32,000 nt of DNA from Candidatus Kuenenia stuttgartensis (GTDB lineage Bacteria > Planctomycetota > Brocadiia > Brocadiales > Brocadiaceae). This document shows positions 4,525 through 31,747 of the stretch, in pieces. Below the pieces are notes generated by a model that was given only the letters and a program-made list of their open reading frames with translations, made no database searches and was not told the DNA's origin. The stretch lies in assembly GCF_900232105.1 (NCBI RefSeq), contig NZ_LT934425.1, positions 390,001-422,000 of the forward strand, given 5' to 3'. Each line of letters begins with the position of its first letter. The stretch's first letter is position 1. The position numbers and the translations under genes are program-made.

Positions 4525-5469
4525 ATGCCGCCCGTAGGTGAAAGGGTTGATAACCTGGAACAAATACTCGCAGAGTTCATCAGGAACGTTGGCAATGCAC
4601 AAATGCAGACGGAGAGGGAAATCCGTGAATTTAAGGACGAAATGCAACGGGACAGGGAAAACTCCAAAATCGAAATGAAGTTATTCAGGGAGGAGATGCG
4701 GAGTTTCAGGGACGAAATGCAACGGGATAGAGAAAACTCTAAAATTGAAATGAAGATATTCAGAGAGGAGATGCAGCAGGACAGGGAAAACTCCAAAATC
4801 GAAATGAAGGTATTCAGGGAGGAGATGCAACAAGACAGGGAAAACTTCAAAAATGAGATGCGGAATTTCAGAGACGAAATGCAACATGATAGAGAAAACT
4901 CTAAAATTGAAATAAAAGAATTCAGGGAAGAGATGCAACAGGACAGAGAAAACTCCAAAAACGAAATGACTGAATTCAAGGAGGAGATGCGGAAAGACAG
5001 GGCAAGGGCATTTAAACAATGGGGAGAAATCACCAACAAAATGGGCACGTTGGCAGAGGATTTTGTAGCCCCAAACGTTGGGGAAATCGCCATGCGGTAT
5101 TTCTGCTGTGAGGAAGGCAGCGAAGAAGATTTCATGGTCAGAAGATTTAAAAGAAAGCCAAAAACGAAGAGCAAGAGAAGAGAGTTTGACGTAATTGCAG
5201 TGTATGATACCAAAATTATTCTTGTAGAAGTAAAATCCACTCCCAGAATACAGTACATAGATGATTTTGCGGAAACTTTAAAGGAAGTGTACGAGTACTT
5301 TCCAGAATATATAAACAAAAAGATCATTCCTGTTTTTGCATCCCTTTATTTACCAGATGAAGTAATTGCATACCTCACAAAGAAAAACATTTTTGCAATG
5401 GCAATCAGAGATGACATGATGGATTTGATGAATTTCGGGGAAGTACATCAGGCCAGGGCAAACACATAA
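4525..5469 (+). CDS. Coiled-coil tandem-repeat protein with a C-terminal PD-(D/E)XK-like (restriction-endonuclease-fold) domain; function unknown
   Basis: GGAGG lies 7 nt before the ATG. The gene is 48 nt after bioD on the same strand. Residues about 35-160 are 18-aa repeats (FREEMQQDRENSKIEMKx). The C-terminal part has a D...ExK pattern: REFDVIAVYDTKIILVEVKS preceded by helix GTLAEDFVAPNVGEI. Fold assignment is inference. Confidence 0.75.
   Translation: MPPVGERVDNLEQILAEFIRNVGNAQMQTEREIREFKDEMQRDRENSKIEMKLFREEMRSFRDEMQRDRENSKIEMKIFREEMQQDRENSKIEMKVFREEMQQDRENFKNEMRNFRDEMQHDRENSKIEIKEFREEMQQDRENSKNEMTEFKEEMRKDRARAFKQWGEITNKMGTLAEDFVAPNVGEIAMRYFCCEEGSEEDFMVRRFKRKPKTKSKRREFDVIAVYDTKIILVEVKSTPRIQYIDDFAETLKEVYEYFPEYINKKIIPVFASLYLPDEVIAYLTKKNIFAMAIRDDMMDLMNFGEVHQARANT
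4627..5005 (+). repeat. In-frame 54-bp tandem repeat, about 6.5 units plus one 21-bp heptad insert
   Basis: Units begin ttcag(g/a)ga(g/c)ga(g/a)atgca... and each encodes 18 aa. Two nucleotide sub-variants alternate (...gatagagaaaactctaaaattgaaat... and ...gacagggaaaactccaaaatcgaaatg...). Confidence 0.9.
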
Positions 5470-5614: not shown

Positions 5615-5757
5615 GGGTGTATTCCCGATTTTTTGTGATTTCCGCCATGTTTTAATGAAACGTTGCAGTAGTGTTAACCCTGACAGGGTTTCAAACCCTG
5701 TCAGGGTTGTTTTTGCCCCGACTCCATGAACGCTTACAAACAATCGGGAATGCACCC
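5615..5757. mobile_element. 143-bp MITE, family C, copy 2, inverted relative to copy 1, with 9-bp target-site duplication
   Basis: Matches the reverse complement of 1853-1994 apart from one T-run indel. Perfect 9-bp direct repeat aaataaata at 5606-5614 and 5758-5766. Confidence 0.85.
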
Positions 5758-5805
5758 AAATAAATACTAGTACATCGTTTCGTTAAAATGTGTACGTAAA
5801 AAAAT

Positions 5806-5885
5806 GTCATTGCGAGTAGTGGAGTGACGAAGCAATCTCTTGTTCCCAAAAAACTTAAGATTGCTTCGCTGTCGCTAGCAATGAC
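5806..5885. repeat. Imperfect 80-bp palindrome, family E (gtcattgcgag...cgaagcaatct / agattgcttcg...gcaatgac)
   Basis: Arms 5806-5838 and 5858-5885 are complementary at both ends (gtcattgc/gcaatgac and gaagcaatct/agattgcttc) with an internal bulge. It lies 100 nt upstream of the ThiC-family gene. Confidence 0.7.
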
Positions 5886-5985
5886 GGTATCAATGTAGAT
5901 ATTTTAATGAAACGCTATACTAGAAAACGGTGGTTTTTAGTTTGAGAAAGTTTTTAAAGGCTTAATTAATTTGGAGTAAAAATAG

Positions 5986-7317
5986 ATGAAAACTCAGTTA
6001 GAACTTGCACGCGATGGTGTTATAACGGAAGCCATGAAAGAGGCTGCTGTATATGACGACGTCACCCCGGAATTTATCCGAGAAGGCATTGCAAAAGGAC
6101 AGATCGTTATTTATGGAAATCCGAACAGAAAGGCGCGTGTGATTGGCATCGGCAAGGGACTCAAAACAAAGGTAAATGCCAGCATCGGCACTTCCCCCGA
6201 TATTATTGACGCCGAGATGGAAGTGAAAAAGGCGCAAACCGCTGAAAAATACGGTGCGGATACACTGATGGAGCTTTCAACAGGCGGTGACTTGGTCAAA
6301 ATCAGAAAACGGGTGTTGGACTCCATTTCTCTTACAGTAGGTACCGTGCCCCTTTACCAGGCGGCAATAGAAACCAATAAGAAAAAGGGTTCTGTAGTAC
6401 ACATGGAGGCTGATTTCCTCTTTGATGTTATAGAACAGCAGGCGGAAGAGGGTATTGGTTTTATGGCTATCCACTGCGGCATTAATTTAATCACCTTAGA
6501 GCGATTAAGAAGGCAAGGTTATCGTTATGGCGGCCTGGTGAGCCGCGGCGGTTCGTTTCTGACCGCATGGATGAATCATAATAAAAAAGAGAATCCCCTC
6601 TATGAACAGATCGACCGTCTTATTGATATTATGAAAAAACACGACGTTATTCTCAGCCTTGGAAATGGCTTACGGGCAGGAGCAGTTCATGACAGTACTG
6701 ACCGCGCACAGATACAGGAACTTATTATCAATTCCGAAATTGCGGAATATGCCCAAAGCAAAGGGGTTCAAATTATCGTTGAAGGACCTGGACACATCCC
6801 CATCGATGAGATCGAGGCAAACGTTTTGATACAAAAACGACTCAGCAACAACGCCCCTTTCTACATGCTTGGCCCTATTACTACCGATATAGCCCCCGGA
6901 TATGACCACATTTCATCTGCCATTGGCGCTGCCTTATCTTCACGTTACGGCGCAGACTTCATTTGCTACGTTACACCGCCTGAACACCTTGCCCTTCCAG
7001 GACCTGACGACGTGCGTGAAGGCGTTATGGCCGCTCGTATCGCCGCCCACGTAGGTGATATGGTAAAACTAAAAGACAAGGCGAAAAACTTAGACCTCAA
7101 AATGGGTATTGCACGCAGAGACCTCGACTGGAAGACTCAATACGAAACAGCCATCACCAAGGAACGTGCACAGGAAATTCGCAATAGCCGTCCTCCCATG
7201 GATGAGGATACATGCACAATGTGTGGCAGTCTGTGTTCACTCAAAGGTGTGATGAAATACTACGAAGAAGACCTGAATAAAAGCCGCAAGAAAAGCGCTG
7301 CCACTGCAGCATTTTGA
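5986..7317 (+). CDS. thiC: ThiC-family radical SAM enzyme: phosphomethylpyrimidine synthase ThiC, or a paralogous 5-hydroxybenzimidazole synthase (BzaF type)
   Basis: Collinear by eye with short-form ThiC: GIGKGLKTKVNASIGTS, TVGTVPLYQA, VSRGGSFL, NKKENPLY, TDRAQIQEL, VEGPGHIP, TDIAPGYDHI, YVTPPEHLALP, and the C-terminal cluster motif CTMCGSLCSLK. See findings for why the ThiC-versus-BzaF question is open. Confidence 0.88.
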   Translation: MKTQLELARDGVITEAMKEAAVYDDVTPEFIREGIAKGQIVIYGNPNRKARVIGIGKGLKTKVNASIGTSPDIIDAEMEVKKAQTAEKYGADTLMELSTGGDLVKIRKRVLDSISLTVGTVPLYQAAIETNKKKGSVVHMEADFLFDVIEQQAEEGIGFMAIHCGINLITLERLRRQGYRYGGLVSRGGSFLTAWMNHNKKENPLYEQIDRLIDIMKKHDVILSLGNGLRAGAVHDSTDRAQIQELIINSEIAEYAQSKGVQIIVEGPGHIPIDEIEANVLIQKRLSNNAPFYMLGPITTDIAPGYDHISSAIGAALSSRYGADFICYVTPPEHLALPGPDDVREGVMAARIAAHVGDMVKLKDKAKNLDLKMGIARRDLDWKTQYETAITKERAQEIRNSRPPMDEDTCTMCGSLCSLKGVMKYYEEDLNKSRKKSAATAAF

Positions 7318-7448
7318 ACCTGAAGGTCAAAAGCATAACGATTTTTTGCTATCAGTCATAATTATCACTACAGCGACATATTATTCTTACGCCCTGCTCA
7401 ATAATTATGCCTGGTATATTAATCCTGTCAGGGTTGTTTCGTTAATTA

Positions 7449-9146
7449 TTGCAAATTTCAAAAGGATCTATTGCCTTGTCGATTGTCTTGCTCGAACACC
7501 CACGTTTAAATAATTCAGTCCGATGTGAGGAAGTAGTGAATGCCCCGTTATCAGCATGCCTGTTTACAGGATATATTGCCTCTGTTTTACGGGAAAACAA
7601 GCTTACGGTCGAAGTTGCCAATGCACATCTTTATGACTGGTCAATAGAAGAAACCATTACACATATCATCGCAAACAAACAATTACAGCTTCTGTGTGTC
7701 CATACCGTATATCTGTGGGAAAGGACCATGGATATATTTGATATGCTCTCAACACTGAAAACGGCGAATGAAGCCTTACACATCAATCTCTACGGTTATT
7801 TTCCCACGTTTGCTTATAAAAATATTCTTACTGATTATCCATTTGTTGATTCTGTGACGGTTGGCGAACCTGAATTTACAACCCTTGACCTTGCAAGAGG
7901 TATTGTATCGGGAAATCGTACTTCAACGGAAATCCAGGGAAGCAATACATTATTAAAAAAGAAGAGAAACCCCCTCTCTTGCCCCCCCCTTGCGAATCCG
8001 GGGAATGAGGTAAGAAGAAGTGTATTCCCTGATGGAATGAATATTGCCGGGCTTGCTTCCAAGGATAAAGACGGGAGGGTCGTTTTTACGCCCAGGCCTC
8101 CTATCCATAATTTAGACCAGCTACCCTATCCTTGCCGGCAGGATGTTACTCTCTGTCAGAAAAAGGGTATTGTTACGTATATACAAGGAAGCCGGGGATG
8201 TTACGGGCATTGTGCCTTTTGCTACCTGAATCCCTTTTATGAGCAAACAAGCCTATGGCGCGGCAGAAGCGCAAATAATATATTTGATGAAATCTTCAAA
8301 TTACACACCAAATACTCTATTGAAAACTTCTATTTTTCAGATGCTAACTTTTTTGGCCCCGGGAAATATGGAAGTGAACGTGCGTCTGCCCTTGCGGATC
8401 TTATTCTTGCAAACGGTTTAAATATCCGATTCGGCTTTGAATGCCGCGTCAACGATATTGAAGAAAAAACAATAGAAAAACTGGTCATGGCAGGACTTGC
8501 CAATGTATTTCTTGGTCTGGAAAGCGGCGATGACAATTCTCTGAAACGATTTAAAAAACACACAACTTCTGAGGAAAATAAAAAGGCTATTCGTCTGTTA
8601 AGAAATTACGGAATAGAGCCAACCTTTGGTTTTATTATGTTTGAACCACATGCTACCATGCAAAGCATACGCAATAATTTTGAATTTCTGAAAGAAACAG
8701 GCATTATGACTTCACCAGCAGTCACCGCTCATTTGCTCCACCACAGGCAAACAGTTTTCCAGGGAACGCCTGCATATCAATCAATGATGCAATCGCAGAC
8801 AAAACTTGATGACTCATTTTCACCCTATGAAATCTTTTATAAAATAAAGGATTTAAAGGCGGATGCATTTTCCGTAATTATTACAAACATATGCAAAGAT
8901 ATTTTAGCCCTCTTGCCTCATACCTTTGTTGAATGCAACGACATGTTATCGGATACCCGCTTTGATTATCCTTTATTAAAAAAATTAAACGACGCATTGA
9001 TCACCGCATTTGAAGATATCCTGCATAAATTCGAAAGTGCCTCCATTGTTCCCAACGGTGAATATTTTCATTCCACACACAGGGAAATAATAAACGATAT
9101 TCAATCATTACTGTTGCATGCAAATGCCTTACATGAGACCAAATGA
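7449..9146 (+). CDS. Cobalamin-binding-domain (class B) radical SAM protein, probable methyltransferase
   Basis: N-terminal Rossmann-like B12-domain signature ending VTVGEPEFTTLDL. Radical SAM motif GSRGCYGHCAFCY (CxxxCxxC). Downstream GLESGDDNSLKRFKK. There is no in-frame ATG near the N-terminus; TTG 7449 is the track start. Confidence 0.85.
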   Translation: MQISKGSIALSIVLLEHPRLNNSVRCEEVVNAPLSACLFTGYIASVLRENKLTVEVANAHLYDWSIEETITHIIANKQLQLLCVHTVYLWERTMDIFDMLSTLKTANEALHINLYGYFPTFAYKNILTDYPFVDSVTVGEPEFTTLDLARGIVSGNRTSTEIQGSNTLLKKKRNPLSCPPLANPGNEVRRSVFPDGMNIAGLASKDKDGRVVFTPRPPIHNLDQLPYPCRQDVTLCQKKGIVTYIQGSRGCYGHCAFCYLNPFYEQTSLWRGRSANNIFDEIFKLHTKYSIENFYFSDANFFGPGKYGSERASALADLILANGLNIRFGFECRVNDIEEKTIEKLVMAGLANVFLGLESGDDNSLKRFKKHTTSEENKKAIRLLRNYGIEPTFGFIMFEPHATMQSIRNNFEFLKETGIMTSPAVTAHLLHHRQTVFQGTPAYQSMMQSQTKLDDSFSPYEIFYKIKDLKADAFSVIITNICKDILALLPHTFVECNDMLSDTRFDYPLLKKLNDALITAFEDILHKFESASIVPNGEYFHSTHREIINDIQSLLLHANALHETK

Positions 9147-9194
9147 ATATAAATTCATCACTATCCTTTACCCCATTTTAAACAGGAACGATTC

Positions 9195-10196
9195 ATGAAT
9201 GAAATAAATCATTTACAATTTGAGTACTTACTTCAACTCAGCTCCGCCTACTGGAAGTCACAAGTACTATTTACCGCAATAGAATTAGATATCTTCACCG
9301 CCATTGGCAATAAACATTTAGCCGCAGAAGAACTCGCGCATAGCATTAATGCAAATGCAAAGGCAACGGAAAAGATACTCGACGCCCTTGTTTCACTCGA
9401 TCTCCTTGTGAAACAGGAAAAGCTTTATCAAAATTCACCAATAGCGAATTCCTATCTCATCAAAGGGAAACCCTTTTACCAGGGTAACGCCATCCACCAT
9501 TTTAACAATATCGCTGAAAACTGGACTATGCTGTCCCAAACGGTGAAAACTGGAGAGGCGGTCGTGTTAAAAGATTTGCCGGAAGAGGCAGACCCGCATG
9601 ATTTAAAAGACTTTATTACCGCAATGCAAAATATTGCATCGGTAAAATCACACGATATATGCGCCACAATACCTTTAAAGAACCCTAGAAATATGCTTGA
9701 TATTGCCGGAGGCCCGGGCACGTATTCCATCGAATTTGTAAAGAAATATCCTGAATTGCACGCGGTAATCTTTGACCTGAAACACGTAACAAAATTAACA
9801 CATGATTTTATTCAGGCCGCAGGGTTACAGGAAAGGATAAAAGTACAGGCGGGAAACTGCCTTGAAGATGATTTTGGCACTAATTGTTACGACACAATTC
9901 TCGTTTCCAATTTATTACACATATACAACCCTGAGAATAATATAACAATACTCAAAAAATGCTGGAAGGCATTGCAAAATGAGGGCACGTTAATTATTCA
10001 TGAATTTGTTCTTGATGAAACAAAAACACATCCTCAGTTTGCCGCACTTTTTAGTCTTAATATGCTCATCGGTACACAGGAAGGGGCGTCTTATAGCGAG
10101 ACAGAGTATCGTTCCTGGCTGAAAACAGTTGGTTGTAACAAAATCACACGCACCGATCTGCAATCAAACTCTTCGTTAATTATTGGCAAAAAATAA
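9195..10196 (+). CDS. SAM-dependent O-methyltransferase, family 2, with N-terminal winged-helix dimerisation domain
   Basis: N-terminal YWKSQVLFTAIELDIFTAI...LVSLDLLVK is dimerisation-domain-like. SAM motif I is LDIAGGPGTYSIEF, followed by VIFDL and a C-terminal LLHIY...L block. The gene starts 48 nt after the class B radical SAM gene. Confidence 0.85.
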   Translation: MNEINHLQFEYLLQLSSAYWKSQVLFTAIELDIFTAIGNKHLAAEELAHSINANAKATEKILDALVSLDLLVKQEKLYQNSPIANSYLIKGKPFYQGNAIHHFNNIAENWTMLSQTVKTGEAVVLKDLPEEADPHDLKDFITAMQNIASVKSHDICATIPLKNPRNMLDIAGGPGTYSIEFVKKYPELHAVIFDLKHVTKLTHDFIQAAGLQERIKVQAGNCLEDDFGTNCYDTILVSNLLHIYNPENNITILKKCWKALQNEGTLIIHEFVLDETKTHPQFAALFSLNMLIGTQEGASYSETEYRSWLKTVGCNKITRTDLQSNSSLIIGKK

Positions 10197-10627
10197 ACAA
10201 TCGTAATGACCGAATAAAATAAAGTAACGGATTTCATCCTCCTTCACAAGCAACAGTTCATGGAGGGCTCATAATAAAAAAGAATTGCAAAAACGTTTTT
10301 ATGACCAATAAGGGCAAAAACGTTACTGGTTCAAATTACTTGAAATAAGTCCTTTTATTTGATAACTTAGCACACATTTTCCCGCGATTTATACTATTGT
10401 TTTAAATTACATGTATGAATAGTGAATTTTTGTAGCAATTTAGTTTTTTTCGAAAAATTCCGATAATAGGGATGTTTGTCACATATCGTAGAATTTTTTT
10501 AAATGGGCAATCCATCTAACACTTTTATCAAGAAGAAAGGAGAAAGTAGAAAGTAGAGATTTACCACTGATTACTAGCTATTTTATTTTGTTTTACCGCT
10601 TATTTATCATAAGGAAAGGGGAATTTG

Positions 10628-12442
10628 ATGATAAAAAAACGCTTTTTAGGGCTACCTTTAGTATCTGTTTTACTTTTTACAATGACATTCTTATGTATAA
10701 ACGATCATATCGCTTATGGTCAATTGCCACAGCCAACAAGAACTCAGCCTCAACCAGGATTTTCTCCAAGGCCTCAGCCTACTGGCACTCAGCCGCAACC
10801 AGGATTTTCTCCAAGGCCTAGGCCTACTGGCACACAGCCTCAACCGGGATTTTCTCCACGACCTCAGCCTACTGGCACTCAGCCTCAACCGGGATTCTCT
10901 CCACGGCCTCAGCCTACTGGCACTCAGCCGCAACCAGGATTTTCTCCAAGGCCTAGGCCTACTGGCACTCAGCCTCAACCGGGATTCTCTCCACGGCCTC
11001 GGCCTACAGGCACCCAGCCTCAACCAGCACCTACACCTGGTGTTGTAACTCCTCAAATATCGGGTGGATGGTCTCATTCGTTAGCACTAGACTCCGAAGG
11101 AAAGTTATGGGCGTGGGGACTTAATGAAGACGGGCAGTTGGGCGATGGCACAAACGACAGCCAAACAACCCCTGTAGCTGTTCAAATAAATGCTCTTACT
11201 ACCATTACTGCCGTAGATTGTGGTGGAGATCATAGTATGGCGCTTGACTCACTCGGCAGAGTTTGGGCATGGGGTTATAACGGTGACGGAGAGCTTGGCG
11301 GTGGAACAACGGAGAATAACAGTAATGTTCCCGTTCCCGTTCCCGTACCTAACCTTACCGATATAATTGCCATTTCTGCCGGAGGCGAATACAGTATTGC
11401 TTTATCATCTGACGGTTCTGTTTTAACATGGGGTGCAAACAGTGACGGGCAGCTCGGCAATGGCAATACTGACCAGAATAGCGTTCCTACTAAAATAAGC
11501 AGCCTACCATTGATGAAAGGAATTTCTGCCGGAGAAGCTCATAGTCTTGCCGTAACAGAAGACGGCTTTGTTTATGCCTGGGGATTAAATGATGAAGGGC
11601 AAATTGGCAATGGCGAAAAGAGCGCGGACAATCCTGTTTTAAATCCTGTACAAGTTCAAGGATTGACTGATATTGATGCAGTTTGCGCAGGAGCCACATT
11701 CAGTTTGGCGCTCGGCATTGACGGAAGGGTATGGGCATGGGGACTTAATGATGAAGGACAATTAGGTGATGGCACGAATACCAACAGCACCACACCCGTA
11801 GAAGTTACAAACCTTGCAAAAATTTCCGCAGTTGCCTGTGGAAGTGACCACAGCCTTGCAATACGAAATGGCAAAGTAAAATCCTGGGGATTAAACGATG
11901 AAGGACAGCTTGGCGACGGTTCAACGAGAAGCAGTTCTGCACCTCTTGACGTTACCGGTTTGTCGGACATCGTATATGTTGCAGCAGGAGAATCTCATAG
12001 CCTGGCAATCACCTCAAAAGGCAACATATATGTGTGGGGATTAAATGGAGATGGTCAATTGGGCGATGGGACGAACAGGAGCAGCAGGACGCCAAAAACG
12101 ATTGATTTGAATCTCGGCGTGACTGCAGTTGAAGGTCCCGGGGAATGCGAAACAGACGACATTGAAGCAGACCCAAAAAAGTTAAAGCTCAAAGTCGGAA
12201 AAAGCACAGAAGTAACATTAACATTAACGGGAGAAGATGGTTGTCTGGTTGAAGGAGAAAGTATTACGGTAAAACTGAATTCATCCGGAAAACGACGTGT
12301 TTCTATCTCTCCGAGCAAGCTAACATCAGACGAAAATGGCAATGCATCCTTTACCGCTACCGCAAATGCGAAAGGCAAAGCCAAGATCACTGCCAAAGCC
12401 GGCAGCAGTAAGGTGAAAATAAAGGTAAAAGTTAAGGAATAA
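10628..12442 (+). CDS. Secreted protein: proline-rich 15-aa repeats, seven-bladed RCC1-like beta-propeller and a C-terminal Ig-like domain
   Basis: Signal peptide MIKKRFLGLPLVSVLLFTMTFLCINDHIAYG. Six full TQPQPGFSPRP(Q/R)PTG units. Seven RCC1 repeats of the form HSLAL..dG.vwaWGlN.dGQLGDGT. C-terminal beta-rich segment KLKLKVGKSTEVTLTLTGEDG...ASFTATANAKGKAKITAK. GGAAAGGGGA precedes ATG 10628 (the track start TTG 10625 is one codon earlier). Confidence 0.85.
   Translation: MIKKRFLGLPLVSVLLFTMTFLCINDHIAYGQLPQPTRTQPQPGFSPRPQPTGTQPQPGFSPRPRPTGTQPQPGFSPRPQPTGTQPQPGFSPRPQPTGTQPQPGFSPRPRPTGTQPQPGFSPRPRPTGTQPQPAPTPGVVTPQISGGWSHSLALDSEGKLWAWGLNEDGQLGDGTNDSQTTPVAVQINALTTITAVDCGGDHSMALDSLGRVWAWGYNGDGELGGGTTENNSNVPVPVPVPNLTDIIAISAGGEYSIALSSDGSVLTWGANSDGQLGNGNTDQNSVPTKISSLPLMKGISAGEAHSLAVTEDGFVYAWGLNDEGQIGNGEKSADNPVLNPVQVQGLTDIDAVCAGATFSLALGIDGRVWAWGLNDEGQLGDGTNTNSTTPVEVTNLAKISAVACGSDHSLAIRNGKVKSWGLNDEGQLGDGSTRSSSAPLDVTGLSDIVYVAAGESHSLAITSKGNIYVWGLNGDGQLGDGTNRSSRTPKTIDLNLGVTAVEGPGECETDDIEADPKKLKLKVGKSTEVTLTLTGEDGCLVEGESITVKLNSSGKRRVSISPSKLTSDENGNASFTATANAKGKAKITAKAGSSKVKIKVKVKE
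10727..11026 (+). repeat. In-frame 45-bp tandem repeat, about 6.7 units
   Basis: The unit cctcaaccaggattttctccaaggcctcagcctactggcactcag recurs with a few synonymous or Q/R substitutions. It produces spurious ORFs on other frames. Confidence 0.9.
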
Positions 12443-17032: not shown

Positions 17033-17210
17033 CGCTTCAAAAGGACACGAGTTTTGTAACTTCTCAAAAAGTTGTAGTAGTTGCAGTTGGTAGAAGGTAG
17101 AAGGGGAAATTCATTGAGGGACAAGTTTTGCCTCCATTAACTCCGCACTTCAGTGCGAAGATACCGTAAAATACCCCGGCGTTAGTCATGACTTTCAGCT
17201 ATGCCGTAAC

Positions 17211-17243
17211 CCTGACAGGATTTTCAAGCCCTGTCAGGATTAA
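17211..17243. repeat. Solo diverged copy of the family-C central hairpin
   Basis: ccctgacaggattttcaagccctgtcagg compared with ccctgacagggtttcaaaccctgtcaggg in the MITEs. A half-copy (cctgtcagggttgttt) lies at 7425-7440. Confidence 0.6.
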
Positions 17244-23280: not shown

Positions 23281-24303
23281 TTAAAACCCTATGATATGTA
23301 ATCTTGATTCGTTTAAATTTGGTTTTTGACTACTGTTTATTATCGTTGAAGCGTCACAAAGACTCCCCTGATACGCACCTCTTTTTTCCAACTCCTGTGT
23401 AATCATTGTTGTGATGCTCGACTTACCGGCTTTCCACACGGGAGATATAAGGAAGTTGCCATGAGTATCACCTACTAATCTTTGTATCGTAACATCCGGA
23501 GGTATACGTTCCAGAAAATCTGCAGCCAGCCGCACATATTCATGAATATCCAGGGTTGTCACATTCCCTTTAAAATATTCTTCAGCCAATGCGGTATTCT
23601 TTGCCACATACAGATGATGCAATTTGATCCCCTGTATACCCATCTCCGCAACCGCATCCGCGGTCTTCATCATATCATCGTCAGTCTCGAAGGGGAGTCC
23701 CAAGATAACATGAACGCATATATTTATGCAAGTTTTTTTTGTAAGGTTTATTGCTTCAACAAAAGATTTATAATCGTGCCCTCTGTTAATGCGCTTCAAA
23801 GTTTCTTCATGTATGGATTGAAGCCCGTATTCAATCCATACATGATATTTTTCCGTGTAGCTATTGATAAGATTTAAAATGTCCTCATTAACGCAATCAG
23901 GCCTGGTACCAATGGAAAGGCCAACTACATCACTGTCTGACAATGCCTCTTCATAGCATGCTTTTAGTGTATGAAAATCAGCATACGTGTTGGTAAACGA
24001 TTGAAAGTAGGCGATAAATTTTTCAGCGCCATACCTTTGTTTTTGAAACGATTTCCCTTTTCTAATCTGTTCCGTTATCGATAAAGAAGGTTTCCTTACA
24101 TTTGGACTAAAACTTTCATTCGCGCAATACGTACATCCGCCCACTCCGGACCGCCCATCCCGATTTGGGCAGGTAAAACCCGCATGAAGCGCTATTTTAT
24201 GCACTTTGAAAGGAAACTGTTGTTTTAGATATTCGCCAAAAGAGAAAAATCGATATTTATACGAATAATCCGTTTGAGTCTTTAAAACAGACATTTTATT
24301 CAT
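23281..24303 (-). CDS. Radical SAM protein, TIGR01212 (YhcC-like) family
   Basis: Characteristic N-terminal motif HAGFTCPNRDGRSGVGGCTYC, then GTRPDC, EYGLQS and GLP blocks. About 340 aa. Confidence 0.85.
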   Translation of the reverse strand: MNKMSVLKTQTDYSYKYRFFSFGEYLKQQFPFKVHKIALHAGFTCPNRDGRSGVGGCTYCANESFSPNVRKPSLSITEQIRKGKSFQKQRYGAEKFIAYFQSFTNTYADFHTLKACYEEALSDSDVVGLSIGTRPDCVNEDILNLINSYTEKYHVWIEYGLQSIHEETLKRINRGHDYKSFVEAINLTKKTCINICVHVILGLPFETDDDMMKTADAVAEMGIQGIKLHHLYVAKNTALAEEYFKGNVTTLDIHEYVRLAADFLERIPPDVTIQRLVGDTHGNFLISPVWKAGKSSITTMITQELEKRGAYQGSLCDASTIINSSQKPNLNESRLHIIGF

Positions 24304-29527: not shown

Positions 29528-29812
29528 CGGAAGGCGTAATTAAACATTTTGCCAAAAAGCACGCACTGACGAATGGAAGTGTGCAAAGAAATTACTGATA
29601 CTGATAAGAGTCTGATATGCTTTCAAATGCTATAGAAATCAACAAATATTGTCAAGTGGTATCTCCAGATATAACTTGTGTAGATTAGGCTCATGGTTTG
29701 GGAACGCTCTGTATTTTTCTATAAAAAGGTATTATACTTTTACTTCCATATGCATTGTTATATCAACCGGAAAGAATTGCTCCTCGATGAGCGTGATTGT
29801 TTAACTTCTCTC

Positions 29813-31747
29813 ATGCCTGCCGTTATGAATAAACAAAACGAAATAACAAAATGGCTTCCTGTTACCAAAAAAGAAGTGGAAATGCGGGGATGGGGCCAAC
29901 TGGACGTCATTCTTATATCAGGCGACGCATACGTTGACCATCCGGCATTTGGAGCTGCGGTGATAGGCAGGATTATCGAAAAAGAAGGATACAGGGTTGC
30001 AATTATTCCTCAACCAAATTGGCGTGACGATCTGCATGATTTCAAAATACTTGGCGCACCGGTATATTTTTTCGGGGTAACCTCTGGTTGTATGGACTCT
30101 ATGGTGAACCATTACACTGCCAACAAAAGGCTCCGTTCCACGGATGCTTACAGCCCTGGCGGAAAAACAGGGTTGCGCCCTAACTATGCCGCCGTCACGT
30201 ATACAAAAATATTGAAATCTCTCTACCCCGATGTCCCCGTCATCATTGGCGGTATTGAAGCTTCCTTACGAAGGGTGACGCACTATGATTACTGGTCGGA
30301 CAAACTGATGCCTTCTCTTCTTGAAACAAGCGGAGCCGATTTACTGGTGTATGGAATGGGAGAAATGCCCGTGAGAGAAATCCTTAAACTTTTAAAAAAA
30401 GGGGTACCCCTCCACCAACTGACTATGGTGAAACAAACGGCTTATCTCCGGAATCAAGGCAACGGCATGCCAAAAAACAAGCATTGGAACGACATTTATA
30501 TACATTCCCACCAGAAATGTTTGGAAGATAAAAAGGCATTCGCCGCAAATTTTAAACAAATAGAACAGGAATCAAATAAGGTTTTTGCCGACCGCATTAT
30601 CCAAACTATTGGAGAAAAAACGCTGATTATCAATCCGCCATTTCAAACAATGACCGAAGAAGAAATTGACGCTTCTTTCGAACTGCCTTACACAAGACTC
30701 CCCCATCCGATATATAAAACGCTTGGCGCTATTCCCGCGTATGAAATGATTAAATTTTCGATCAACACGCATCGCGGATGTTTCGGCGGATGCAGTTTTT
30801 GCACCATCTCTGCGCATCAGGGAAAGTTCATTGCCAGCCGTTCACAGTCTTCTATTATGAGAGAAGTGGAACAGGTAACCAACATGCCGGATTTCAAAGG
30901 CTATATTTCAGACCTTGGCGGCCCATCCGCCAACATGTATAAAATGAAAGGCAGAATACAGGAAATATGTGATAAATGCATCCGCCCTTCATGCATTTAT
31001 CCCGCTGTTTGTGACAATCTCAATACAAACCATTCTCCGATAACCGAAATTTATCGCAAAGCCGATGCGCATCCAAAGGTGAAAAAGGCATTTGTAGGCA
31101 GCGGCATCCGGCACGATTTATTGACAAAAAGCTATAATAAAAAAGCCGACACATCCATTTACGACTATTTGGAACAGCTTTTAACCCGGCATGTTTCCGG
31201 GAGGTTAAAAGTTGCCCCTGAACATACTTCCCCGACAATCCTTAAATTGATGAGAAAACCGTCATTTGAACATTTTAAGGAATTTAAAAAGCTATTTGAC
31301 CGTATTGATAAACAACACGGACTCAATCAACAGCTTGTCCCCTACCTCATCTCCAGCCACCCGGGATGCACGGAAGACGACATGGCAACCCTTGCCGCAG
31401 AAACCAGGGAACTCGGATTCCATCTGGAACAGGTGCAGGATTTTACTCCCACACCCATGACCGTTGCAACCGTCATGTACTACTCCGGCTACCATCCCTA
31501 TACGCTTAAAGAATATTACGTACCCAGATCAATCCGTGAAAAAAAGGAACAGCATCGTTTCTTTTTCTGGTATAAGAAAGAAAATCAGGATTGGTTAAGG
31601 AAGAAACTTTTTGCGTTGAAAAAACCGGATTTGCTCAAAAGGCTTTTCCCCTTCGGGAAAACAAAATCACACCCGCAAACAAAACCCATCAGTGAAATAA
31701 TGTCCCACAGACCGCCTAAACAAAAGCAGCGAAGGGATGCGTTCTAA
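29813..31747 (+). CDS. ygiQ: YgiQ-family (UPF0313) radical SAM protein
   Basis: N-terminal WLPVTKKEVEMRGWGQLDVILISGDAYVDHPAFG block typical of YgiQ. Radical SAM motif HRGCFGGCSFCTI. Basic C-terminal tail. The track start at 29693 is probably too early; ATG 29813 or 29825 is the likely start. Confidence 0.88.
   Translation: MPAVMNKQNEITKWLPVTKKEVEMRGWGQLDVILISGDAYVDHPAFGAAVIGRIIEKEGYRVAIIPQPNWRDDLHDFKILGAPVYFFGVTSGCMDSMVNHYTANKRLRSTDAYSPGGKTGLRPNYAAVTYTKILKSLYPDVPVIIGGIEASLRRVTHYDYWSDKLMPSLLETSGADLLVYGMGEMPVREILKLLKKGVPLHQLTMVKQTAYLRNQGNGMPKNKHWNDIYIHSHQKCLEDKKAFAANFKQIEQESNKVFADRIIQTIGEKTLIINPPFQTMTEEEIDASFELPYTRLPHPIYKTLGAIPAYEMIKFSINTHRGCFGGCSFCTISAHQGKFIASRSQSSIMREVEQVTNMPDFKGYISDLGGPSANMYKMKGRIQEICDKCIRPSCIYPAVCDNLNTNHSPITEIYRKADAHPKVKKAFVGSGIRHDLLTKSYNKKADTSIYDYLEQLLTRHVSGRLKVAPEHTSPTILKLMRKPSFEHFKEFKKLFDRIDKQHGLNQQLVPYLISSHPGCTEDDMATLAAETRELGFHLEQVQDFTPTPMTVATVMYYSGYHPYTLKEYYVPRSIREKKEQHRFFFWYKKENQDWLRKKLFALKKPDLLKRLFPFGKTKSHPQTKPISEIMSHRPPKQKQRRDAF

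Follow-up and report, generated by a model that had tools for sequence, protein, structure and literature searches.

A predicted bzaF gene, annotated as thiC, and its conserved radical SAM and O-methyltransferase neighbours in Kuenenia stuttgartiensis and other anammox bacteria

A 32,000-nucleotide stretch of the Kuenenia stuttgartiensis genome (contig NZ_LT934425.1, positions 390,001 to 422,000; hereafter the window, with positions counted from its first letter) carries three successive genes on the + strand, whose products are a 443-aa ThiC-family protein, a class B radical S-adenosylmethionine (SAM) protein and a family-2 O-methyltransferase (OMT). Judged from its active-site residues and its place among related proteins, the first gene is very probably bzaF, the gene of a 5-hydroxybenzimidazole synthase, rather than the thiamin gene thiC. 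The three genes are conserved and linked across anammox bacteria, and we put at roughly 0.55 the probability that bzaF and its two conserved partners act together in the synthesis of a cobamide lower ligand.

An initial annotation, made from the sequence alone, had read the three open reading frames (ORFs) as 5986-7317 (443 aa), 7449-9146 (565 aa) and 9195-10196 (333 aa), co-oriented and separated by gaps of 131 and 48 nt. This layout holds apart from a later start of the radical SAM gene: because its orthologs begin with MSIILLEHP, the start is placed at a TTG at 7476 with AAAGGA in front, giving a protein of 556 aa and a bzaF-radical SAM spacer of 158 nt. An identical 443-aa protein is encoded on CP049055.1 and in five other assemblies, and the same two genes come next in all of them.

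Identity of the ThiC-family gene

The 443-aa protein scores 607 bits on ThiC_Rad_SAM (PF01964) and passes two NCBIfam ThiC equivalog models (599 against a cutoff of 410, and 582 against 460). These models cannot separate BzaF from ThiC, because their cutoffs are also exceeded by the representative of protein cluster P0242 and by the product of a gene inside a cobamide (cob) operon at metagenomic locus L023. At the active site, Asp383 of AtThiC hydrogen-bonds N3 of the substrate aminoimidazole ribotide (AIR) and is replaced by Asn in BzaF (PMC12661338, PMC11117688). We located Asp383 as the Asp of the GDGLRPG motif and checked the numbering via the zinc histidines, CcThiC His417 corresponding to AtThiC His426. 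A further residue, Cys474 of CcThiC, is the essential catalytic cysteine, and the C474S mutant yields no hydroxymethylpyrimidine phosphate (HMP-P) (PMC11117688). The 443-aa protein does not qualify as ThiC on these two residues: it has Asn at the Asp383 position (GNGLRAG) and Ser at the Cys474 position (QKRLSNNAPFY), and R-A-G replaces R-P-G. Asp383 is the one active-site difference between ThiC and BzaF traced in the literature; the other positions come from part of the BzaF hidden Markov model (HMM) consensus of Shelton et al. 2019, which reads LSLGNG(L/I/M)RAGA and KKR(M/L)SNAAPFY, disfavours Asp, Pro and Cys, and agrees with the 443-aa protein in Asn, Ala and Ser alike. The initial annotation had pointed to the blocks LSLGNGLRAG and RLSNNAPFY as departures from the ThiC consensus; both are present, and they fall at the very residues that separate BzaF from ThiC in the literature and in that part of the HMM consensus.

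The trusted cutoff of the BzaF HMM is 564.1 bits (Shelton et al. 2019), and in Table S8 of the same study ThiC homologs from Brocadia sinica, B. fulgida, Brocadia sp. 40 and Jettenia caeni appear as bzaF, with scores of 607-612 bits. The anammox orthologs that we retrieved are 83-95% identical to the 443-aa protein. The locus holds a single ThiC-family ORF and no bzaA/bzaB-type pair; an identity as BzaA or BzaB was rejected, as the protein scores 557 on the BzaB model (cutoff 700) and has no paired gene. P0245, a true BzaB representative, passes that cutoff with 733 and carries Asp-Pro-Cys, indicating that the Asn-Ala-Ser signature is not that of BzaB.

The relatives of the protein place it in a cobamide context. 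Among 1.84 billion representative proteins searched, the nearest non-anammox clusters, P0241 (63% identity) and P0242 (55%), share Asn-Ala-Ser, and all more distant representatives show other residue combinations, mostly Asp-Pro-Cys. A neighbour-joining tree joins the anammox proteins with P0241 and the P0242 group, including all riboswitch-linked sequences, in a single Asn-Ala-Ser clade; ThiC and BzaB carry Asp-Pro-Cys, and the 443-aa protein lies outside their clade. Scanning metagenomes with P0242 yielded 15 loci, five of them with an upstream Cobalamin riboswitch (64-120 bits; gathering score 31.5). At L023 the order is riboswitch-cobC-cobU-cobT-cobS-bzaF-cobD/cobQ, where bzaF is a ThiC-like gene with Asn and Ser, and the related locus L029 additionally has cbiB.

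Rfam scans (E<=10) detect neither a thiamin pyrophosphate (TPP) nor a cobalamin riboswitch in the window or in the 516-nt leader, the leader giving nothing at E<0.2, and the scanned window ORFs, which comprise nearly all ORFs of at least 120 aa, include no thiamin or cob gene. The initial annotation had noted both the missing thiamin genes and TPP-type leader and the missing cobT and cobalamin riboswitch, and these scans agree with it. It had also taken the ThiC-family gene for a bzaF-type gene and not a thiamin gene, naming as contrary evidence a position inside the ThiC clade together with the status of sole ThiC homolog. Instead, the protein lies outside that clade, and the Kuenenia genome table lists a second ThiC homolog, thiC_2 (KSMBR1_0949), elsewhere than the trio (PMC7438415), so that the 443-aa gene is not the only one; the bzaF-type reading is thus borne out by residues, HMM consensus, clade and second thiC. 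Presumably, thiC_2 is kept separately for thiamin. The transcript level of thiC_2 is about twice that of the window bzaF.

Compared with ThiC, the Kuenenia protein is 40-50% identical and shares the fold, the zinc histidines and the Fe-S cysteine motif at the C-terminus, yet it lacks the catalytic Asp and Cys as well as a TPP riboswitch or thi context, and belongs to a separate clade. Hazra et al. and Mehta et al. reportedly described BzaF in 2015 as the 5-hydroxybenzimidazole synthase of Geobacter sulfurreducens and Desulfuromonas acetoxidans. The Kuenenia gene resembles this BzaF in its ThiC-family radical SAM fold, its Asn/Ser/R-A-G signature, its occurrence as a single gene and its clade of cob-operon proteins; unlike it, the gene adjoins no cob genes or cobalamin riboswitch, and its linkage is with biotin genes and with the genes of two tailoring-type enzymes restricted to anammox bacteria.

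The radical SAM and O-methyltransferase partners

The radical SAM protein contains a Radical_SAM domain (67.6 bits) with its CX3CX2C motif in the form GCYGHCAFC. The cobalamin-binding domain PF02310 is weak in the Kuenenia protein itself (13.8 bits, E 0.05, residues 33-133) and reaches 26-32 bits over the same residues in the orthologs. The top PDB matches of its AlphaFold model (pLDDT 77.9) are the cobalamin-dependent radical SAM enzymes OxsB, TsrM, MgmA, TokK and CysS and the related AprD4, and OxsB is also the closest solved relative by sequence (74 bits). The cobalamin domain proposed in the initial annotation is therefore upheld by the ortholog scores and the fold matches. The protein has the class B architecture of BzaD and BzaE, a cobalamin-binding Rossmann domain followed by a CX3CX2C barrel, and is likewise encoded directly after a ThiC paralog; unlike these enzymes of about 440 aa, it is about 556 aa long and has nearer relatives, at low scores, in BchE, HpnJ, ArsL and OxsB. 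Brocadiales account for every one of its 120 best database matches (Kuenenia, Brocadia, Jettenia, Wunengus, Loosdrechtia and Scalindua; 44-93% identity). Membership in the ladderane-associated B12 radical SAM family TIGR04072 was rejected (61.2 bits against a cutoff of 360).

The OMT combines a Dimerisation domain (PF08100, 69.9 bits) with a Methyltransf_2 domain (PF00891, 91.8 bits), with no variation at the catalytic-type His242 or in the SAM-binding glycine motif. Its model (pLDDT 89.7) resembles RedM, human ASMT, PigF and other small-molecule methyltransferases, with template modelling (TM) scores of 0.83-0.88 at 24-26% identity. ASMT, PigF and RedM act on hydroxy-indole or pyrrole-type substrates. 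Orthologs occur in every anammox genus sampled at 44-98% identity (best 120 matches, almost all anammox); those in other Brocadia genomes are 61-63% identical to the window OMT. The next relatives, at 39-40% identity, are for the most part about 450 aa long and fused to a 2Fe-2S ferredoxin, with some unfused proteins among them, and the three loci examined represent non-cob contexts. The fusion proteins of L015 and L016 (10001-11356) show an unusual architecture, in which an N-terminal thioredoxin-like 2Fe-2S ferredoxin precedes the dimerisation and Methyltransf_2 domains, and their genes adjoin sugar-nucleotide epimerase genes. A sugar or lipid role, considered from epimerase genes beside the OMT gene (L012, L019 and the outgroup L015), was dropped because the three epimerases are non-orthologous (no match, or 23-28% identity).

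BzaC is described as "O-methyltransferase, family 2", matched over 279 HMM positions from about residue 82-88 and sometimes fused to DUF2284 (Shelton et al. 2019 Table S8). In Pfam family and layout the OMT matches it, having an N-terminal extension and a place in a bza cluster, at most 3.5 kb from bzaF in six lineages; like BzaC of the bzaABCDE operon, it has about 85-100 aa of N-terminal domain ahead of its family 2 domain and is encoded beside a ThiC-paralog gene. Unlike BzaC, it shows no DUF2284 fusion, and its nearest non-anammox relatives are the ferredoxin fusions in non-cob contexts. As a separate observation, a stand-alone gene for a metal-binding DUF2284 protein lies 3 kb downstream of the OMT gene at L012 (18783-19322) and has no homolog in the other fetched loci; Thermincola potens BzaC, one of the long BzaC proteins (508-511 aa), is annotated DUF2284 (Shelton et al. 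2019 Table S8).

The pairing of a class B radical SAM protein with a Methyltransf_2 protein also recalls BchE/BchQ/BchR and BchU of bacteriochlorophyll tailoring, and in NCBIfam the best-scoring names for the two partners are BchE and BchU. The scores are nevertheless far under the cutoffs (103.5 against 481 for BchE; 58.2 against 276 for BchU on the OMT), and no other bch genes are nearby. To our knowledge, anammox bacteria make no bacteriochlorophyll.

Linkage was surveyed by tblastn over all fetched loci. In six of the seven lineages with sufficient contig reach, the trio lies within 6 kb with bzaF and the radical SAM gene adjacent: K. stuttgartiensis, a second Kuenenia species (L013), a Lake Tanganyika metagenome-assembled genome (MAG; L014), a Brocadiaceae MAG with a radical SAM-OMT gap of 32 nt (L017), a 5.1-Mb anammox contig with gaps of 0.6 and 1.6 kb (L011), and a Scalindua-type MAG in which an epimerase gene and a DUF5658 gene are inserted in the trio (L012). 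Two Scalindua contigs (L007 and L008) read bzaF-radical SAM-DUF5658 and then end. The flanks vary by lineage, with bioA/bioD or hemB/HD on one side and RCC1, DUF218, S21 or SurA on the other. The functional set proposed in the initial annotation gains support from this clustering in most lineages and from the co-occurrence of the three genes in every anammox genus sampled. Transcripts of all three are recorded for Kuenenia MBR1 (PMC7438415); no convincing + strand terminator was found inside the trio, and the predicted folding of the bzaF-radical SAM spacer is at the level of shuffled sequence (z = 0.03).

A SAM_HAT gene (DUF62, SAM hydroxide adenosyltransferase) is a recurrent loose neighbour (L001 2554-3426, L014 515-1303, L011 6984-7814, L009 8894-9790), located 2-8 kb upstream of bzaF in Kuenenia-type loci, L014 and L011; in Brocadia it immediately precedes the radical SAM gene. 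It could be either an ancestral gene-order remnant or a fourth functional partner.

Proposed pathway and competing explanations

Acetogens with the Wood-Ljungdahl pathway, which anammox bacteria use as well, contain 5-methoxybenzimidazole and 5-methoxy-6-methylbenzimidazole as lower ligands. In the anaerobic route to the lower ligand, BzaF or BzaA/B gives 5-hydroxybenzimidazole, which BzaC O-methylates, with a preference for the ribotide; the class B radical SAM enzyme BzaD is a predicted methylase of a ring Csp2 that leads to 5-methoxy-6-methylbenzimidazole, and BzaE is required for 5,6-dimethylbenzimidazole (DMB) (PMC12931638, PMC6461909). Each of the first three bza classes has one representative in the anammox set, on which ground we propose roles for the partners in a bza-like pathway. 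The bzaF product would convert AIR to 5-hydroxybenzimidazole, the first benzimidazole of the route; the OMT would methylate its 5-hydroxyl to give 5-methoxybenzimidazole, and the radical SAM protein may methylate a ring carbon to give 5-methoxy-6-methylbenzimidazole or an isomer. The benzimidazole product would then be joined to the corrin by cob genes sited elsewhere. DMB is not expected, because the locus has one class B radical SAM gene only. The most economical reading is that the pathway would end in 5-methoxybenzimidazole or 5-methoxy-6-methylbenzimidazole by way of non-orthologous tailoring enzymes, and we give roughly even odds that the partners are such analogues of BzaC and BzaD, methylating 5-hydroxybenzimidazole. 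That anammox bacteria evolved benzimidazole tailoring enzymes of their own, independent of BzaC, BzaD and BzaE, which would either converge on 5-methoxy-6-methylbenzimidazole or make a new methylation pattern, for a cofactor specific to the anammox Wood-Ljungdahl and methyl-transfer machinery, seems unlikely.

Several observations weigh against joint action of the three genes in lower-ligand synthesis. Unlike in canonical bza operons, no cob gene or cobalamin riboswitch stands beside bzaF in the window (ORFs scanned), and neither adjoins bzaF at seven other anammox loci. Conservation over the surveyed loci is uneven, at 83-91% identity for bzaF, 43-62% for the radical SAM protein and 44-81% for the OMT, and the transcript level of bzaF is about 3- to 5-fold above that of both partners (PMC7438415). 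In Brocadia sensu stricto, the radical SAM gene lies beside a SAM_HAT gene (L009) and the OMT gene alone (L019), and neither has a bzaF within 10 kb; the partners are retained although dispersed, and Brocadia genomes carry bzaF, indicating that co-transcription is not required. The trio is absent around the nearest non-anammox OMT relatives and around the non-anammox bzaF loci examined. The family models, too, keep the partners apart from the known enzymes. The radical SAM protein, which the initial annotation had called BzaD-or-E-like, has only the class B architecture in common with these families: it reaches 34 bits on the BzaD model TIGR04385 (cutoff 450), over the radical SAM core only, and scores higher on NCBIfam BchE (103.5, cutoff 481), HpnJ (84, cutoff 578), ArsL (83, cutoff 450) and the rejected ladderane-associated model. 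The HMMs of Shelton et al. for BzaC, BzaD (trusted cutoff 511.6) and BzaE make no calls in Brocadia or Jettenia, whose rows in Table S8 hold bzaF only, though other Brocadia genomes hold orthologs of the partners; the description of the OMT as BzaC-like in the initial annotation is therefore not supported as written. The radical SAM protein is thus not a member of the BzaD/BzaE family and the OMT probably not one of the BzaC family, and each belongs to the same enzyme class as its counterpart.

Much of this would fit a genuine bzaF whose neighbours serve an unrelated anammox-specific pathway, such as lipid, quinone or small-molecule tailoring, in which case the adjacency would be inherited gene order and the cobamide would carry plain 5-hydroxybenzimidazole. 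The separate Brocadia loci, the best scores on BchE, HpnJ and ArsL and not on BzaD, the bzaF-only rows of Brocadia and Jettenia, which imply plain 5-hydroxybenzimidazole, the conservation gap between bzaF (83-91%) and the partners (43-81%) and the missing cob or riboswitch linkage all favour it, and bioA, bioD, SAM_HAT and hemB are also syntenic across lineages, so that gene order here is partly conserved irrespective of function. However, all clustered lineages, Scalindua-type and Kuenenia alike, keep bzaF and the radical SAM gene adjacent although both flanks change; the enzyme classes of the partners are those of the next known bza steps, and no alternative pathway context was found for either, the epimerase lead having failed. 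We regard inherited gene order, the chief rival, as possible and rather doubtful. Very unlikely, in our judgement, is a product of the trio that is derived from benzimidazole or AIR without being a cobamide ligand, or that bears a methylation pattern not made by BzaC, BzaD or BzaE. Such a product would agree with partners that are apparently non-orthologous to these enzymes and have almost all of their best matches in anammox bacteria, with the missing cob-gene and riboswitch linkage, and with a radical SAM protein that has a C-terminal helical region and whose nearest solved relative, OxsB, is a non-methylase; yet the products of all characterised BzaF enzymes go into cobamides, members of the sister clade are encoded within cob operons, and anammox bacteria need cobamides and express the genes for their synthesis (PMC5460018). 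The annotation of NCBI and of the genome authors, which makes the gene a thiamin pyrimidine synthase ThiC with unrelated neighbours, is extremely improbable. Every public name says ThiC, the equivalog cutoffs are passed, and the D383N mutant of AtThiC keeps part of its activity (PMC11117688); against this, the same models pass P0242 and the protein of the riboswitch-controlled cob operon at L023, the essential Cys474 is a Ser, neither a TPP riboswitch nor a thi neighbour is present, the protein falls outside the Asp-Pro-Cys clade, and the genome has a second thiC homolog. Combined action of bzaF and its partners in lower-ligand synthesis thus remains the explanation that we prefer.

Surroundings of the trio and significance

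The features of the locus are listed in the table. Across seven anammox lineages the bzaF leader has a mean identity of 41%, and its sole conserved feature is a GGAG ribosome-binding site. Upstream of the trio lie an IS1380 transposase gene, bioA, bioD and a tandem-repeat protein gene; downstream follow genes for an RCC1-repeat surface protein, an acyltransferase and an AddA-like helicase.

Features of the trio locus in the window
Feature	Positions	Strand	Basis	Remarks
Terminator-like hairpin, 16-bp stem and T-run	5675..5709	+	Terminator scan	Between the upstream repeat-protein gene and bzaF; built from the palindromic intergenic repeat
bzaF leader/promoter region	5710..5985	+	Rfam scans; 7-lineage alignment	
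bzaF, kuste4200 / KSMBR1_0396, annotated thiC_1	5986..7317	+	Family scores, residues, BzaF HMM consensus, tree	Predicted 5-hydroxybenzimidazole synthase, substrate AIR
Class B radical SAM gene, kuste4199 / KSMBR1_0397, annotated bchE_1	7476..9146	+	Domains, fold, synteny	Putative benzimidazole C-methylase
Family-2 OMT gene with N-terminal dimerisation domain, kuste4198 / KSMBR1_0398, annotated tcmO	9195..10196	+	Domains, fold, synteny	Putative 5-hydroxybenzimidazole O-methyltransferase

A palindromic intergenic repeat, AACCCTGACAGGGTT, occurs in the window as two full hairpin copies and two half copies (1900-1934, 5675-5709, 7424-7436 and 17207-17219); its motif has 6 matches in the window, with 0 expected by chance. 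One full copy is the terminator-like hairpin before the bzaF leader, and one half copy lies in the bzaF-radical SAM spacer. The repeat looks like a repetitive extragenic palindromic (REP)-type element of the Kuenenia genome. Repeats also mark the two genes that flank the trio. The 314-aa kuste4202 (DUF8196; 4525-5469) contains 54-nt and 162-nt tandem repeats that encode heptad-like units of the EMQQDRENSKIEMK type; its length differs by strain (271 and 314 aa), and its transcription is among the higher ones of the neighbourhood. In the RCC1-repeat protein (10625-12442), 45-nt repeats (PQPGFSPRPxPTGTQ) form an array at the N-terminus, while the Ig-like domain at the C-terminus resembles the tail of the anammox S-layer protein Kustd1514; gene calls of this ORF range from 401 to 619 aa depending on the Kuenenia assembly. 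The IS1380-family transposase gene (50-1387, - strand) lies upstream of bioA. A 449-aa transposase is encoded at the corresponding position in GCA_027493735.1 (L006) and none in five other K. stuttgartiensis assemblies, indicating a strain-specific insertion near the trio. Two more radical SAM genes in the window, for an MnmL/YtqA-type tRNA modification enzyme (23281-24303) and a YgiQ-family protein (29693-31747), are unrelated to the trio and caution against assigning every radical SAM gene here to one pathway.

Anammox bzaF is already on record, solely as rows of a supplementary table (Shelton et al. 2019), and public annotations still say ThiC. In the literature searched, no paper names kuste4198-4200 or links Kuenenia to a benzimidazole, and there is no mention of a conserved partnership of bzaF with an anammox-restricted radical SAM protein and a distinct OMT. 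Annotations should treat the 443-aa gene as belonging to cobamide synthesis, and judgements of thiamin capacity should rest on thiC_2. Anammox MAGs are said to make thiamin, with thiCD present (PMC9530715); such statements may count bzaF as thiC, and the corrected annotation bears on inferences of vitamin exchange in anammox communities, of which that study is an example. As for the cofactor itself, the gene set predicts a methoxy-substituted, possibly also methyl-substituted, benzimidazole instead of the plain 5-hydroxybenzimidazole implied by HMM surveys. The late steps of the bza pathway are still termed an open question (PMC12931638). If the partners do act on a benzimidazole, they would be non-orthologous replacements for BzaC and BzaD, and the radical SAM protein would bring an as yet uncharacterised lineage of cobalamin-dependent radical SAM enzymes into the pathway.

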